A DNA stretch of 62,323 bases, filler included. It is 10 parts of 10 records of this genome, joined end to end, with 100 filler letters (N's around TTAATTAATTAA, not from the genome) between each part and the next. Parts side by side here need not be neighbours in the genome. Positions count along the whole stretch, not along the records: positions 1 to 5,334 come from SRR31147125_137780; 9 more parts are not named here. One strand, written 5' to 3'. Position numbers and translations under genes: made by a program. Below, one piece after another: positions 1 through 19,132 of the stretch. Position 1 is the first letter of the stretch. Every line of letters begins with the position of its first letter. The notes under the pieces are model-generated. The model did no database searches. It had not been told where the DNA came from and was given only the letters and a program-made list of their open reading frames with translations.

Positions 1-465
1 TTCTTCGTTGAGATACGATTTGTAGAACAAGTCACTGGAGTCCATTGACGCTCATTTAGAGAGTCTTTTCCCATATATTAGCATCTCAAAAAGGTGGCAT
101 GAGGGAAGTCGAGGGTAAGGTTCATCGTTGTTTTCAGTGTTTCAGTTCAACAAAAACGGTGACAAGCTGGTGGCAAAACGCCATAGCACACCGTTGTCAC
201 TGGTGTTGGCATTGCTAGGAACAGCTTGATGAACGGTAACTGCCGGACATTCCGTAGAATATCGAAAAAGTCGCTTACAGCCCTGCTTGTCCCGCAACTC
301 TTCGCAAAACCCCGGTTCTTAATAGAACGTAATGTGATCTGCATGCGACGGGACACTCAGATCAATCTGGATCCTTGTTTCTCGCTCACCGAATGTTATA
401 CTATCATGCAATTCTCGTTTCGGGACACGAAAGCAGATCACATCTGCCAACGGAGAAGCCTTCAA

Positions 466-1143
466 ATGACAGATAGCACGGAAACCGGGCTTCGTACAAT
501 AACCATCTCCAGAGCAGCTCTTCTGGAGAAAGCTGATCGATTTGTCGGGGCAACAACAACAAGCGAGCTGGAAGATTTGAAAAGTGCTGAGAATCGTACG
601 GTATGGCATCAGTTCTCTGACCGTTATCGTCCGATGATCATGAGTTTCGCCAGAAACCAGTTCGGTTTTTCAGAAGCCGACGCAGATGAGGCTGCCCATA
701 CCACCATGATTGCTTTCGCCGAAGAATACCAGAAAGATAAGTATAACCGTGATAAAGGCAGACTTCGCAGCTGGCTTTTCGGGATCGCGAAAATGCAGAT
801 TAAAAACCTCATCAGAAAACAAGCCCGGATTCGAGAACGTCAGGAACCTTGTGACAACTCAGGATCAGCGTTTTTTGACCAGATCGCATACTCGGATGAT
901 GAACTGGAGAAAGCCTGGGAGGAAGAATGGCGCCAGGCGATTTATCGCCAGTGTATTCAGGAGGTTTCTGTGCATTTCGACAAGAAGACAATAGAGGCTT
1001 TCGACCTGTTCGCAAGACAGGGTATGTCGGCAAAAGATGTGGCGGAAAAGCTTGATATGTCTCAAAATGCAGTCTTCCTTGCGAAACACAAGATTCTAAA
1101 GCGTATTCGCGAACTGGTACCATTAATGGAAGAAAACTGGTAG
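466..1143 (+). CDS. ECF-family RNA polymerase sigma-70 factor (planctomycete, kinase-associated type)
   Basis: Region 2 (VWHQFSDRYRPMI...YNRDKGRLRSWLFGIA) and region 4 HTH (SAKDVAEKLDMSQNAVFLAKHKILKRIRE). ATG 466 follows a GGAGA RBS; the ORF-track start at 226 is probably too early. Confidence 0.92.
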   Translation: MTDSTETGLRTITISRAALLEKADRFVGATTTSELEDLKSAENRTVWHQFSDRYRPMIMSFARNQFGFSEADADEAAHTTMIAFAEEYQKDKYNRDKGRLRSWLFGIAKMQIKNLIRKQARIRERQEPCDNSGSAFFDQIAYSDDELEKAWEEEWRQAIYRQCIQEVSVHFDKKTIEAFDLFARQGMSAKDVAEKLDMSQNAVFLAKHKILKRIRELVPLMEENW

Positions 1144-1378
1144 ACACCGGCACGGTTGTCCGCTCAAACAAATCCAAAGAAAAACCTGCGCGGGAGAAAG
1201 ATTGCAGAGAAAAAGAACCAATATCATTCGACCTGACTGGCAGGAGAATTATACTTTCGTGCGATCGAATATGAAAAGAGTGTAACGGGAAGCTGATCAT
1301 TATACTATTGAGCTTCAGATTCCCGGATCATTACTCTCCGGCCCTCGTTGCGATTCGTAGCTTTAAAGGAATTGTTCG

Positions 1379-4300
1379 TTGAAAGGCAACCCTGACTGCT
1401 CATCCGAAGAACAACTAGCCGGCTTTGTTGAGGGAATGTGCTCCGAAGAGGAAACTGCACGGATCAAAGCACACCTTCGACAATGCAATCGTTGCGCTCA
1501 ATGGGTCCAGGAGGCAATGGCCAACGATGCGTTTCTTCCGAGTGTACTCAACGCTTTGATTTCCGGGTGTATGGAAATCTCTCCCGGGACGACTGCTACT
1601 GCCAAACAAGGCGTTTCCCGAACCCATTCCTTCTCTTTCCCCAAACGTTCTTTCGATGAATTTACCATCCTTGACGAGATTCACCGGGGAGGTCAGGGGA
1701 TTGTGTACAAAGCGGAGCAGAAATCGACAAATCGTATTGTCGCGCTGAAAGTTCTACTGTCCGATACATTCGCCTCAAGCAGACAGCGGCTTCGTTTCGA
1801 ACGGGAAATATCTCTCGTAGCGGCCCTGAACCATACCAATATTGTTACGATATTTGACAGCGGTGTAACAACAGATAATCGCTATTTCTTCGTGATGGAG
1901 TACATTGAGGGAGCCGATCTGAATGACTTTCTTAGGGTTCAGAATCCGGACATTCCTGAAGCCTTGAAGTTATTCTGCACAATCTGCAGTGCTGTTAGTT
2001 ATGCACACAACCGAGGCGTCATTCACCGCGATCTCAAGCCAGGGAACATCCGTATCGACTCAAAAGGTCAACCACAAATACTCGACTTCGGGTTGGCAAA
2101 AGCGGATGGATTGCATCTGGGGAACCGTGCCGGAACGATGACTATTGAAGGCGAGTTTATGGGAACGCTTGCGTATGCGTCTCCTGAGCAGGCACAGGGT
2201 GATCCGGGGTTGATCGATGCATTAACAGACATCTATTCGCTTGGCGTGATATTGTTTGAGATGCTCTCAGGAGAACATCCAATCGAGGTGAAGGGTCGTA
2301 TCCCGGAAGATCTTCAACGAATCATAAATGACGTTCCCAAATGTCCATCCAGCGTAAAGCCTGAAATTGATGAGGAACTCGAAACGATCATCCTCAAAAC
2401 CCTGTCCAAAGAAAAAGAACGACGTTATCAATCCGTGGCGGCTCTTGCAGATGATGTGGAGCGATATCTTGCAAACGAGCCGATTCAAGCCAAGCGGGAC
2501 AGTCGGCTTTATGTGTTGAAGAAGACACTTTCTCATTATAAAAGGAAGATTGCATCAGGAGCGATTGTAGTGACTGTGGTATGTGTGGCAGTCGGTGTCG
2601 GCACCCATTTCTGGCTGGAATCGAATCGCACCAACAGGGCAAGAAGACTAATCAACGATGCCGTACCGCTACTTGAAGAACGAACCCAACTAGATACAGC
2701 AGAAGAAAAGCTGAATAAAGCTCTTGAAAATTTCCCCTGAAGATGAGATGGCCCTGTTTCTTCTAGGCCAGCTCAATACCATACATGGGCTCAGGGCACC
2801 CCTTGAAGACAAAACGGATTACCTCCAAAAAGCAATCCAGTCCTATTATGATGCGCATCTGGCAGCCGGCGGCATGTCCCTGGAACAACTGAAAGGACAG
2901 CAAATTCCCACCGACCCACAGGAAGGCATGGGCCGAGCCCTGTTGCTTGCAGGAAAGTTGAGTCTTCTTGCAGGAGAACGCGACAAGGCAGAATCCTATT
3001 TCGCACTTGCCCGCACTACGATGGGCGAGGAGGAGTGGAAACACACACGGATTTATGACGAAACAAAAGATCCACTCATTGATGATTCATTCCCCTACTC
3101 AGATTCTCCGGAAGCCGCTCATCAGACGCCGAACCTGAATGCGGTACTCCAATGGGGATTGAAAGCGAGTGTGTCGAGCCTCGATCCACGATACCCCAAA
3201 GGAAAAGATGATGCGATTCATGCATTCCTGTTTGACTGGTTCTTTCGAATTGAGCTTGATAATGGGCAACCGGTTCCAAAGCCAAATCCCGACATCATCG
3301 CGGGTCCAATCATCAAATCTGATGACAAAAAGACATGGGAGATCAGGATTCGTGATGATGTTCAATGGCATGATGGACATGCATTGACTTCAGAAGATAT
3401 CGTTTTTTCATGGGAACAAGCCCCTGAAAGCGACACGACGGTTGAAAAAGTCGATGAAAATACTGTCCGGGTAACATTCAGCGATCCGTCCCGTGCTGTC
3501 GAACGTGATCTGAAATTTCCTCTGCTCCCAAAGCATCTTTCTGATGAGTGGGGCGATGAGTTCGATGTGCTTTTCAGCAGGAACCCCATTGGCACAGGTC
3601 CCTATCGATATAATCCCCAAAGCTCTCAGGACCATATTATCATTGAAAGGCAGGATGATTGGTCCATCTCTGATTCACCTGCCTATTTTGCCCGTGTAGA
3701 GTTTCGTGTGTTCAAGGATCGCACAGAACGTTTACAGGCTCTTGCGAATGGTGAGATTGACATCGTTGAGCTGAGTGCAGATGAATTTCGATGGCACGTG
3801 AACGGTGAATCATTTCGCAATCATGTTCGAAAGATCAAACATCCTCAGTGGGCATATGAATATATCTGCTGGAATGCGGATGGGTCCAATCCTTTCTTTA
3901 TTGATGTCAACGTTCGACGTGCGATGGCGTATGCCATGGACCTCAATCGAATCGTCGAAGGAAGGTTTGAGGATCTTTACACTCGCTCTACGGGGATTTT
4001 TGCCAATGGATCGTGGATGTTTAATCCCGACATCGAGCCGATTGACCAAAATCTGGAAATTGCCAGCCAGTTGCTGGATGAAGCAGGATGGAAGCTTCAA
4101 GCACCATCAGGCACTATCCGGACACGTGATAAAGGAAAACTCTGTTTTTCCCTGCTTGTGCCCGAGACGTCCAACGACTTCCTCGACCTCGTATCAGATC
4201 TACAGGAAGACCTGCGTAAGGTGGGCGTTGAAATGATGGTGGAGAAAATTCAGACGAATGAATGGGCCAAGCGGATGAAAACTCGAGATTTTCAGGCATA

Positions 4301-4630
4301 TGCCAGCCGGGTTCGCACCGGGTTCCACCCGAACGAAGCATGGGAACGATGGGCGACAGGTACAGTAAAAACTTTGGAGCTTTCAGCAATTCCGAAGTCG
4401 ACGAACTTTTTGTACAGGCGAGAGAAGAAAAAGACGAAACACTTCAGCCGAAGCACTACCGGAAGATTCAGAGATTAATCTATCATGACCAGCCTTACGC
4501 CTTCCTCTGGCACACGCCGACACTTCTGGCAGTCAACAAAGAGCTGCGTGGCATCCAGCTCGGACCCCTCGGTATCACCCGTTTTTCGCCCGGACCTCGA
4601 AGCTGGTGGTTCAGAGCGGATGCCGACTGA
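1379..4630 (+). CDS. Membrane receptor Ser/Thr kinase: ZAS zinc finger + Hanks kinase + TM + TPR + family 5 (OppA/DppA-like) solute-binding domain; two compensating frameshifts (ORF pieces 1379-2740, 2724-4478, 4262-4630)
   Basis: HLRQCNRC (HxxxCxxC); GGQGIVY, VALKVL, HRDLKPGN, DFGLAK, GTLAYASPEQ; TM IASGAIVVTVVCVAVGVG; SBP5 motifs IRDDVQWHDGHALTSEDIVFSW, PIGTGPY, VRRAMAYAMD, NSEVDELF...DQPYAFL. Removing one A at 2727-2730 gives TPR-like KALEISPEDEMALFLLG; adding one base near 4367-4371 joins the SBP C-terminus. First and last pieces share the same frame. Confidence 0.8.
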
Positions 4631-4998
4631 CTTAAAGCAGTCTTGGTCATCTGGACATGAAGCTGGTTTCCTGACAAAAAAACACCACTACCCGGAAAGA
4701 TCGAACAGTCGGAATACCAACTTCTATCAGACAAGAAAAAAGGATAAGCGAAGCGAAAGTATTGATCCTTCTTCATCAGGTATCGAAGAAGCTTTTCAGG
4801 TGTTTCGTTGCATCCAGACAGGTTTTTTTGTAACATTGTATTATTGCCAAATGGAAGGGGTTAGGGGTTATTGCGTAGTTCCTCAGGCACGCGAGGGGAA
4901 AACACCTTCATTTCGCTGATACAGGGTTTCAAAAGCAAAGCTGACACAAATTCACTTTTTCGCTTCCAGTTGGTGTTCAACTTGAAAGGGACATGGCT

Positions 4999-5334
4999 AT
5001 GAAAAAACAGGAATACAATGTGCGTTTTCTGCTGGCAGGAGCGGCTCTGATCTTTCTTACTTCTCACGCTGTTGCACTCGCAGGGATCATTCATGTAGAC
5101 GACGATGCCCCCGCCAGCGGCAATGGAGTAACCTGGGATACTGCATTTCGCTATCTCCACGCACTTGATGTCAGCACGAATGGGGATGAGATCCGCCTTG
5201 CTGGGGGAGTATACACTCCTGACATGTCCGAGGCCGGACAGGTTGCACCAGAAGAGCGTCGTGGAGCGACTTTCGTTCTGGTCAATGGCGTGAAGATATA
5301 TGGCGGCTATGCGGGTATCGGGGCGAACAACCCG
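4999..5334 (+). CDS. Secreted protein, N-terminus of a probable parallel beta-helix/pectin-lyase-fold protein (partial)
   Basis: Signal peptide (LLAGAALIFLTSHAVALA) then IHVDDDAPASGNGVTWDTAF...GDEIRLAGGVYTPD...ATFVLVNGVKIYGGYAG, a motif I associate with Phycisphaerae surface proteins. Cut by contig end. Confidence 0.7.
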
Positions 5335-16929: not shown

Positions 16930-17166
16930 GCCGTGTAGTCGACACGAAACGTCTCCACCATTTCCTCACTCACAGTGGCAAGTGCTGGGGATCGGCCAGG
17001 CACGCGCACCCTCGTTCAATACCATATCTACATTCCCGTCGTAAGGGGACAACACGAGGCTTGTGGAAGGCGCGCACTTCTCCAGGTACGTGTCAGGGAC
17101 GTCGGCCGAGATGTCGAGAAGGGGATTTCCCATGCCTAAGAGAATGTGCTCTCGTGGGGCACTCAT
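16930..17166 (-). CDS. ADK: Eukaryotic adenosine kinase, 5' exons (partial)
   Basis: LLGMGNPLLDISA motif. Removing GT-AG intron 17028-17077 gives LEKYGIERGCACLADPQHLPL, followed by EEMVETFRVDYTA. Confidence 0.8.
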
Positions 17167-17202
17167 TGTCGCCGGTTGTCACGGAGGCAGAGGAGAGGAA
17201 TT

Positions 17203-17238
17203 GTGGAATGTGGAAAGTGGAAAGTGGAAAGTGGAAAA
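17203..17238 (+). repeat. 7-nt tandem repeat (GTGGAAA), about 5 units, first imperfect
   Basis: gtggaat gtggaaa gtggaaa gtggaaa gtggaaa. Confidence 0.85.
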
Positions 17239-17260
17239 ACCACCTCATTCCTCCTCCTCT

Positions 17261-17320
17261 CTTGTGAGATCCTCCCTCGTGAGATCCCCTCTCGTGAGAT
17301 CCCCTCTCATGGGATCCTCT
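17261..17320 (+). repeat. 15-nt tandem repeat x4 (CTCGTGAGATCCCCT-like)
   Basis: CTTGTGAGATCCTCC / CTCGTGAGATCCCCT / CTCGTGAGATCCCCT / CTCATGGGATCCTCT; reads [20 protein letters not shown] in the MetRS frame. Confidence 0.85.
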
Positions 17321-19132
17321 CTCATCACAACACCCATCTTCTATGTCAATGGAGCCCCACACATTGGGCATTTGTACACGTGCGTCTTTGCCGACGCAGC
17401 CGCTCGATGGAAACGCGCAGGCGGGACACGCATCTCTCTTGTGACGGGCACCGACGAATACGGACAGAAGGTGGAAGAGACAGCACATCGTTGCCACATG
17501 CAACCACACACATTCGTCGACACTTGCTCGGAACGTTTTCGGATGTTGGCAGACGTTGCAGATGTTGGCTATGATGACTTCCTTCGTACGACCGAGTGGC
17601 GTCACAGGAAGGCCGTGGAAACGTTGTGGACACAACTCCTTTCAACGGGTCTCGTCTTCAAGGGACTCCATCAAGGCTGGTACTGCGACGTAGAGGAGGT
17701 GTTTCTGCCTCCCATGCAGGTTTGTGTTCATTCTTCATCATCGTCTTCATGGACGTTCATGGTCGTGATCTGTGGGGAGGGAGAACAGGTGGAACGGAGG
17801 AATGATGGCACAAGGATCTCAGTCCGCGGCGGATATCCGCTCCGATGGATCACGGAAGAGAATTACAAATTCCGTCTTGGAGCCATGACACCACGGCTCA
17901 AAGAGTGGCTTCGTATCCATCCGCATGCGATTTCTCCACCTCAACGATACAACGAAGTACGAAACGGATCTTTTTTTGTAGTGGTATAGAAGGATCTGTC
18001 TGATGGAAATGAGTGAGACAGACGTGGGAGAATCTGTGTGGGGGACTTGATGATCTTGCCATCTCACGACTGCGTGCACGATCGTCATGGGGAATTCCTG
18101 TCCCTAATGATCCCGATCAAGTCATTTATGTGTGGATTGATGCCTTGACAAACTATCTGACTGTTTGCGGCTTCCCGAACACGTTGGGTCCATGGCCACG
18201 TGTTCATCACATCATTGGAAAGGATATTCTCAGATTCCACACCATCTACTGGTCCGCAATGGGGTGTTGTATTTCCGCGCGCGGATCCTCCTAATCATGC
18301 AGGAAACAGGCCTGCTCTACTCATGGCTGTGGGTTTGGATCCCCCTGAACGCATCACAGTCCACGGCCATTGGACGATCCGAGGTGAAAAGATGTCCAAG
18401 AGCAAAGGCAACGTTGTGGATCCGTTTCTGCTTTTTGAACGTATGGGCGTTGATCCCACTCGCTACTACCTCCTCCGAGAGGGACCCTTTGTGAATGATA
18501 GCGACTACTCGGACGATCGTGTTGCCCTTCGCTTGAACGCAGATCTTGCTGACACACTGGGAAACTTGGGGTCACGGGCGTTGAGCGTGCGGCTGAATCC
18601 AGAAGGTGTGCTTCCTGCATGCGGTCCCGTCGAAGAGGACGATCGAACACTGGCTGAGGAGTGGAGACGAGTTCCCGAGCAAGTAGATACGCTCTTTCGT
18701 GCAATGAATTTTGCCCAGGGTCTGAATGTGATCTTCACACAACTCCGCGCTACCAATCGGTACACCACGGTGTTCGTGGCAAGTGTTGCGTGCTTAACAT
18801 CCCTTCATGAAGGTATTTCACACGGGCGGAGCCGTGGGTCCTCTGCAAGACGAATCCTCTACGACTTGGGACGGTGCTTTTTCACACAACCGAAGCGCTT
18901 CGTGTTGCAGCACTTCTCCTAGCACCCATTATGCCACAGTCCATGCAACAGTAGGGAAAGCGGTGGCAGAGGTGTGTGCGACGGACTCACTTCTCTCCTC
19001 CATAGATTGTTGTTCGCGTTGGGTGTCGAGGCGCCCGAGCGTACCCTCAACCATGCCGTTTTCGGATCCCGAGCCCCTGGTGCCCCGTTTGGGGCTTCAC
19101 GCAAGGGGCTCATTCTGTTCCGCAAGGTGTAA
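17309..19132 (+). CDS. MARS2: Methionine--tRNA ligase, mitochondrial/bacterial type, spliced eukaryotic gene
   Basis: [51 protein letters not shown] introns at 17720-17788, 17957-18021, 18252-18309, 18760-18812 and 18951-19005 restore one frame ending ...LILFRKV-stop. Confidence 0.88.

Follow-up and report, generated by a model that had tools for sequence, protein, structure and literature searches.

A putative receptor kinase with a family-5 solute-binding ectodomain encoded beside an ECF sigma factor of planctomycetal type

To our knowledge, the signals sensed by bacterial Hanks-type Ser/Thr kinases are largely unknown, and we know of no planctomycetal pair of an extracytoplasmic function (ECF) sigma factor and a kinase with a known signal. 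Such pairs are described as group ECF62, a planctomycetal group in which a one-helix Ser/Thr kinase, often with WD repeats, is encoded at position +1 (Jogler 2012, cited by Casas-Pastor et al. 2021, PMC7826278); in the supplementary text of the latter, the part on this group places a zinc finger at the kinase N terminus in three subgroups. For group ECF43, the passages devoted to it in PMC13147305 and PMC8999054 describe a region 2.2 in which the acidic DAED-type motif is replaced by uncharged residues and a phospho-acceptor Thr. In PknT/EcfP and PknS/EcfK, the kinase controls the adjoining ECF sigma factor and its extracytoplasmic domain modulates the kinase, according to the relevant passages of PMC13147305. 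Among kinases with binding-protein-like sensors, those parts of Krupa and Srinivasan (2005) that concern them give a Streptomyces coelicolor kinase with a Glu/Gln-type binding domain and a Nostoc kinase with an ANF receptor domain, and the corresponding part of Bhattacharyya et al. (2018) names solute-binding protein (SBP) kinases including MSMEG_1200/StpK7, with about 260 such kinases cited in InterPro. The passage on GlnH/GlnX/PknG of mycobacteria in a 2021 review (Matilla et al.) calls it the only characterised case of an SBP acting on a Ser/Thr kinase. Here we describe a locus from a 62,323-nt stretch of joined contigs (the window, at its full length) in which the gene for an ECF sigma factor is followed by that for a membrane-spanning kinase ending in a complete family-5 SBP fold (Table 1). 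Coordinates are those of the whole joined stretch, and the analysis was limited to its first contig (1–5334).

Table 1. Positions of the features of the sigma factor–kinase locus in the window, with the evidence for each.
Feature	Position	Strand	Evidence
ECF-type sigma factor gene, 225 amino acids from ATG at 466 (open frame back to TTG at 226)	466..1143	+	Sigma70_r2 34.5 bits, cut-off 24
Sigma factor–kinase intergenic spacer, 235 nt	1144..1378	+	TATACT-like boxes at 1249–1257 and 1300–1308, read from sequence
Whole receptor kinase gene	1379..4630	+	1,083 codons plus stop with both assembly indels set aside
N-terminal zinc-binding anti-sigma (ZAS-type) domain, residues ~1–60, predicted	1379..1558	+	Pfam zf-HC2 30.4 bits, cut-off 22.2
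Hanks-type Ser/Thr kinase domain, residues 97–356	1667..2446	+	Pkinase 158.4 bits (cut-off 31.7), E = 3e-46
Single transmembrane segment, residues ~389–415, predicted	2543..2623	+	Sole stretch with a 19-residue Kyte-Doolittle mean >1.6 (1,083-residue read-through)
Extracytoplasmic helical linker, partly TPR-like, predicted	2640..3044	+	Helices 8–107 of the ORF2 model, pLDDT mostly >90
First break	2727..2730	+	A4 in window, A3 in independent contig; stop map and tblastn
Complete family-5 (cluster C) solute-binding fold, predicted	3144..4627	+	SBP_bac_5 203 bits (cut-off 32.4), E = 1e-59
Second break	4367..4371	+	A5 in window, A6 in independent contig; stop map and tblastn
Start of downstream gene, signal-peptide-like N terminus, cut by contig end	4993..5334	+	Open reading frame call

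Downstream of the sigma factor gene, the plus strand carries three open reading frames (ORFs), at 1379–2740 (453 amino acids), 2724–4478 (584 amino acids) and 4262–4630 (122 amino acids), which a first-pass annotation of this DNA had joined into one gene through two cancelling indels. The stop map, tblastn and an independent assembly agree with it: a single intact gene underlies the three ORFs, interrupted by two homopolymer indels of one base each. Stops are absent from the kinase frame over 1367–2737, from the next frame over 2715–4475 and from the first frame again over 4262–4627, so the first frame change must lie within 2715–2737 and the second within 4262–4475. Two single-ORF homologues, P0001 (1,084 amino acids) and P0002 (1,176 amino acids), align to the window by tblastn as three collinear pieces, with 35–57% identity to intact homologues in all three and no stops inside each frame. 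The borders of the P0001 pieces (residues 86–454 at 1661–2737, 450–995 at 2724–4361 and 999–1079 at 4370–4612) place the two breaks in runs of four and five A (Table 1). The arithmetic of the first-pass annotation is also right, in that 1379–4630 is 3,252 nt, or 1,083 codons plus a stop, and translation through both breaks, with an X at each, yields 1,083 residues.

The check across both breaks that had been proposed was run with contigs of a public sequencing run, X1, which contains 0.76 of the sampled words of 1300–4700. Logan contigs of X1 are independent of the window as an assembly but not as a sample. Eight pieces aligned to this interval, of which seven are ≥99% alike, leaving the bins 1756–1869 and 3580–3693 uncovered. 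They differ from the window in exactly two places, lacking one base at 2727 and carrying an additional A after 4366, and no further letter differs in 1300–4700. A single contig shows each difference, with word depths of 5.4 and 6.1. With the resulting runs of three and six A, the frame demanded by the homologues is intact. Because the X1 contigs restore the frame, the pieces keep their identity and the structural model of the second ORF is confident up to the break, we read both indels as errors of the window record.

The restored product consists, in order, of a zinc-binding anti-sigma (ZAS) motif, a Hanks kinase, one membrane helix, a helical linker and a family-5 SBP fold. The Pfam families zf-HC2, Pkinase and SBP_bac_5, which the first-pass annotation had placed in a single chain, all matched above their cut-offs. 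The zinc ligands are Cys7 and then His32-x3-Cys36-x2-Cys39, a motif kept in 11 of 12 aligned kinases, and in sequence terms the N terminus has the class I zinc-binding anti-sigma signature, that is, His-x3-Cys-x2-Cys with an upstream fourth ligand in a short, predicted helical domain. A PDB search with this N terminus returned chance matches only (E = 0.6–0.95). The catalytic Lys, HRD, DFG and SPE motifs are all present in the translation, at positions that are invariant in 26 of 26 homologues, and by these motifs the kinase is of Hanks type and predicted to be catalytically complete. A single hydrophobic segment in the read-through agrees with the single-pass topology proposed at first. In AlphaFold2 models of P0001 and of the second window ORF (ORF2), a long helix runs through the membrane into a helical linker and a two-lobe binding fold. 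The linker had been called a tetratricopeptide repeat (TPR) region; its helical nature is upheld by the ORF2 model, and its TPR identity only in part: four of the 26 homologues match TPR_11 at E ≤ 0.01, and the two matches with listed scores lie under the Pfam cut-off.

The sensor domain was identified from its profile match together with a modelled fold. The third ORF alone (4262–4630) had no Pfam match. The ORF2 model had a mean predicted local distance difference test (pLDDT) score of 89.6 and a predicted template modelling score of 0.87, and was poor beyond residue ~548, the point at which the frame is lost; the model of the full-length homologue P0001 had a mean pLDDT of 83.9. Both contain the two-lobe binding fold. 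The top Foldseek matches were the oligopeptide binder AppA (1xoc), CtaP (5isu) and the nickel-histidine binder NikZ (4oet), at template modelling scores of 0.78–0.86 over ~515 columns for the full-length homologue and 0.70–0.75 for the C-terminally cut ORF2. The higher scores of the full-length homologue are in line with a complete OppA/DppA-type fold to which the third ORF contributes the end, and on the models and the profile the domain is a family-5 SBP. It shares the two-lobe cluster C fold with AppA, CtaP and NikZ, and differs from them in setting: those are free exported proteins of ATP-binding cassette (ABC) importers, at 21–25% identity, whereas the window fold forms the C-terminal part of a kinase whose gene has no importer genes in its vicinity. 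The nearest solved relatives, at 15–25% identity, bind oligopeptides, nickel-histidine, opines, microcin, sialic acid or ethylenediaminetetraacetate (EDTA)-type chelates, and the murein-tripeptide binder MppA, also of family 5, is among the structural matches.

This architecture recurs in public proteins. A word-indexed search for longer proteins gave six matches, all six with Pkinase and SBP_bac_5, and an exhaustive search of representatives gave 82 proteins at E ≤ 1e-30, the strongest being mostly 1,048–1,176 residues long and matched at about 450–1,000. Pfam assigned Pkinase and SBP_bac_5 to 26 of 26 aligned long homologues and to four shorter proteins of 965–1,005 residues, which gives 30 distinct public proteins with both domains. 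zf-HC2 was found in six of the 26 long homologues, and HxxxCxxC stands near the N terminus in seven of them by a simple motif scan. Among species representatives, the fused form was present in 2 of 401 sampled Phycisphaerae genomes and was not found in the 15 matching genomes of a 401-genome Planctomycetota sample, which does not amount to absence from that phylum. A kinase-motif scan of genome contigs yielded 78 generic kinase loci, none with a binding domain. ESM Atlas clusters of 154, 111, 81 and 71 members are 100% Pkinase plus SBP_bac_5, with Actinomycetota as the commonest known phylum, so the domain pair extends beyond the clade of the window.

The N termini of the fused kinases are of at least three types (with the zinc anti-sigma motif; longer and helical without Cys ligands; short), which are intermixed on the tree of binding domains. 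This intermixing suggests that N-terminal modules may have been swapped among fused kinases. One fused protein of 986 residues, P0150, carries Pkinase and SBP_bac_5 and is named 'ABC transporter substrate-binding protein [Phycisphaerae bacterium]' at NCBI; for a member of the fused-kinase family, this name is likely an annotation error.

Genomic context was compared at seven fused loci, namely the window, metagenome contigs L096–L099, which were found by a scan that used a three-sequence alignment, and the Phycisphaerae genome loci L110 and L111. No ABC permease or transporter ATPase gene was present in any of the seven. The first-pass annotation had reported none alongside the window gene, and this holds across the loci, with the window's own 5.3-kb contig being too short to say much. 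The 15 best free-standing planctomycetal relatives of the domain have frames of 559–779 residues, and a BPD_transp_1 permease gene directly follows in 13 of them (one of the remaining two runs off its locus and the other gave no match in the chosen frame). The domain of the window has none of the marks of a transporter component: it lies inside the 1,083-residue chain, with no signal peptide or lipobox of its own, as noted at first, and adjoining permease and ATPase genes were not found.

In a maximum-likelihood tree built from 91 binding-domain rows, the sequence from the window fell within a 34-row clade (Shimodaira–Hasegawa-like approximate likelihood ratio test (SH-aLRT) support 100). Its members include 28 rows with a kinase, along with five short records in which no kinase can be seen and which are probably truncated gene calls. 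The 15 rows linked to a permease all lay outside this clade. In a 100-row tree, 33 of the 34 kinase-bearing rows fell in one 41-row set with support of 99. The trees were built with FastTree from quick searches, carry SH-aLRT values only and are unrooted; the window was entered as its read-through row, and the fused protein P0083 was left out. Because the kinase-borne domains form a clade apart from their permease-linked, free-standing relatives, one main co-option of the SBP from transporters is supported, though not proven, by these sequences, in keeping with the origin that had been proposed for the sensor.

On profile grounds, the upstream gene encodes an ECF sigma factor with sigma-2 and sigma-4 regions only. 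It passes the superfamily model TIGR02937 (sigma70-ECF, NCBIfam) at 59.5 bits against a cut-off of 42.9, and Sigma70_r4_2 scores 18.7 bits, below its cut-off. Of 401 sampled Planctomycetota genomes, 51 contain homologues at E ≤ 1e-15. At the 30 best of these loci, a Hanks kinase gene directly follows on the same strand in 21, and HxxxCxxC is present in the N-terminal region of 15 of the 21 kinases by a crude motif scan that may miss some. The relatives at L066 and L048 have the same sigma factor–kinase arrangement with TPR sensors. The window sigma factor belongs, as far as sequence can tell, to a planctomycetal family that is typically paired with a kinase. At the fused loci, an ECF gene lies directly upstream in five of seven (the window, L097, L099, L110 and L111). 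As for the claim that the kinase controls its neighbour, the adjacency in these five loci and the anti-sigma motif stand in its favour, and from them we infer the control itself. In region 2.2, the acidic residues of the window sigma factor are D-A-D-E, and those of its two closest ECF relatives D-A-x-D; membership in ECF43 is ruled out by the acidic D-A-D-E.

The sigma factor–kinase module matches the published description of ECF62. Here too a one-helix kinase with an N-terminal zinc finger is encoded at +1, as it is at 15 to 21 of the 30 best ECF-homologue loci. The difference lies in the sensor: the published added domain is WD40, and the passage on ECF62 does not mention a solute-binding domain. 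In the window, the usual WD40 or TPR sensor of an ECF62-type module appears to be replaced by a solute-binding domain. We know of no ECF62 member that has been characterised. With the ECF43 systems PknT/EcfP of Vibrio parahaemolyticus and PknS/EcfK of Xanthomonas citri, the locus shares a receptor Hanks kinase gene beside an ECF gene; however, their sigma factors lack the acidic motif and are switched on by Thr phosphorylation, whereas the window sigma factor is acidic and its kinase bears an anti-sigma motif, and PknS senses through TPRs rather than a binding protein.

The SBP kinases resemble the window protein in that a single polypeptide joins a Hanks kinase to a membrane helix and an ectodomain of periplasmic-binding-protein type. 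Their named examples are actinobacterial or cyanobacterial, the passages that describe them mention no ECF partner or anti-sigma motif and characterise no ligand, and the ectodomains of the 2005 examples, as described there, are of Glu/Gln and ANF-receptor type, in contrast to family 5 here. In GlnH/GlnX/PknG an SBP likewise reports an extracellular nutrient to a Ser/Thr kinase, but the parts are three distinct proteins, the kinase being soluble and the SBP of family 3, and the output is GarA phosphorylation and not a sigma factor. Literature searches (SBP_bac_5 with Pkinase; Hanks-type with OppA or solute-binding) found no paper describing this architecture within the searchable papers, and the one supplementary file covered from a Planctomycetota kinase survey contains no SBP_bac or zf-HC2 term. 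The first-pass annotation knew of no characterised system with this architecture, which still holds for the searched papers; its broader novelty is tempered by SBP kinases, ECF62 pairs and ESM Atlas clusters of 71–154 members that were already on record. The finding is a real combination of ECF62-type sigma factor–kinase pairs with SBP kinases, both catalogued, that we did not find described in the searchable literature.

We propose, with a probability of roughly 0.7, that the locus encodes an intact single-pass receptor kinase, with an anti-sigma N terminus, a Hanks kinase domain and a transporter-derived SBP ectodomain, that signals to the neighbouring ECF sigma factor. A small periplasmic ligand (by analogy, an oligopeptide, nickel-histidine or a similar chelate) would close the two lobes of the binding fold, and closure would be passed through the stalk and membrane helix to alter kinase dimerisation and autophosphorylation. 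The N-terminal anti-sigma domain would hold the sigma factor, which kinase activity would release or activate; the freed sigma factor could then turn on target genes, perhaps including the secreted protein encoded downstream. A more specific form of this proposal, to which we would give clearly less than even odds, is a three-in-one transducer: a ligand trap derived from a transporter would drive, from outside the cell, a Hanks kinase that carries the anti-sigma factor as its own N terminus, and ligand binding would free the sigma factor by phosphorylation in cis, either of the anti-sigma domain or of the sigma factor held by it.

Several observations weigh against the proposed receptor. The indel evidence comes from contigs and not raw reads, at a depth of about 5–6, and X1 is perhaps the source sample of the window itself. 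Positive charge flanks the membrane helix on both sides, so the orientation with the kinase inside was taken from the kinase's need for the cytoplasm. A kinase-bearing row, P0074, an N-terminally cut record, falls outside the fused clade. L096 and L098 have no ECF gene within 6–8 kb; among the context loci other than the window, the ZAS motif is found only in the kinase of L096. Conversely, the ECF-linked fused kinases of L097, L099, L110 and L111 lack the ZAS motif, and the sigma factors of L097 and L099 are only 20–21% identical to that of the window where aligned. Since four ECF-linked kinases lack the motif and the two aligned sigma factors are distant, the coupling mechanism may differ within the family; the lack of an ECF gene near the ZAS-motif kinase of L096 and the mixing of N-terminal types across the binding-domain tree also speak against one uniform mechanism. 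A shared ECF promoter was not found either, with no common pairs among the window, L066 and L048 (shuffled mean 0.03).

The absence of the ZAS motif from those four ECF-linked fused kinases would fit a kinase that phosphorylates the sigma factor directly, as PknT does EcfP and PknS does EcfK, with the zinc motif as a docking or redox element rather than an anti-sigma domain. Direct phosphorylation is also the only mechanism demonstrated for ECF–kinase pairs in the passages that treat them in PMC13147305 and PMC8999054. We nevertheless consider it unlikely for the window, whose sigma factor is acidic where ECF43 has uncharged residues and the target Thr and whose kinase belongs to a set that conserves all four ligands of the ZAS signature. 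According to the relevant part of PMC8999054, the acidic motif is retained outside ECF43, and those other groups may act by a different mechanism. If instead the gene were truly broken, the first frameshift would leave a membrane-anchored kinase without a sensor, and the SBP part would be a decaying remnant. Both indels do stand in the window record, and the independent evidence is a single contig per site at the depths given above. That both contig differences are frame-restoring with no other letter changed, that every piece retains its identity to intact homologues in stop-free frames, and that the ORF2 model keeps its pLDDT of 89.6 up to the break make decay very improbable.

The remaining alternatives concern what the binding fold does. 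It might no longer take a free solute and instead recognise part of the cell envelope, for example a peptide of the cell wall, or serve only for dimerisation. MppA, as a family-5 member among the structural matches, an N-acetylmuramoyl-L-alanine amidase gene ~3.7 kb away in L110 and conserved motifs peculiar to the fused clade all lend this some appeal, but the whole two-lobe fold appears to be kept, at high model confidence, and we regard the idea as unlikely. Equally, the tethered domain might still serve an ABC importer encoded elsewhere, joining delivery and signalling in one protein. An OPT oligopeptide transporter gene near the fused kinase of L096 could be taken in this sense; set against the lack of ABC permease and ATPase genes at all seven loci and the separation of kinase-borne from permease-linked domains on the tree, it leaves continued importer service quite improbable.

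Upstream of both starts, that of the ECF gene (396–404) and that of the kinase gene (1300–1308), stands TTATACTAT, with a near copy, TTATACTTT, at 1249–1257. The TTATACTAT and TTATACTTT copies may be −10-like boxes. A sigma-70-like match at 1228–1255 agrees at 9 of 12 positions, but the scan that found it gave no more matches in total than shuffled sequences did, and promoter and terminator consensus scans overall did no better than shuffles. Rfam gave no match on 1–5334, and no public RNA runs are listed as containing the stretch. The product of the cut downstream gene (Table 1) had no Pfam match; a 37%-identical relative (E = 1.4e-12) is encoded at 17065–17352 on the minus strand of L096, near another fused kinase. 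This downstream gene could possibly be a target of the sigma factor.

Other neighbours of fused kinases were recorded as they stood. In L096, the OPT gene (1327–3314, minus strand) lies upstream of genes for a TPR protein and the fused kinase, and consists of two overlapping ORFs that may reflect another assembly frameshift. L099 and L111 have common downstream genes, including one for a protein of 474–475 residues with a weak CsgG-like match, and are probably orthologous loci of related Phycisphaerae. In L098, a Zeta-toxin/AAA_33-like gene (663–1334, minus strand) and a DNA methylase gene lie near the fused kinase. The full window (1–62323) comprises ten contigs joined by paired 44-base N runs; its GC content varies between 0.34 and 0.63 from one kilobase to another, and the contigs may therefore come from several organisms in a mixed bin.

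The architecture was hidden by two homopolymer errors in a low-depth assembly, and sequence-based annotation can mislabel SBP-tipped receptor kinases, as the example of P0150 illustrates. Because ligands of the SBP family (peptides, metal chelates, oligosaccharides and opines) can be screened, the input of such a system is directly testable and may be unusually easy to identify. If true, the three-in-one transducer would link a solute to a sigma factor without regulated proteolysis or a two-component system, and would provide a first mechanism and a first class of sensed ligand for ECF62-type systems.

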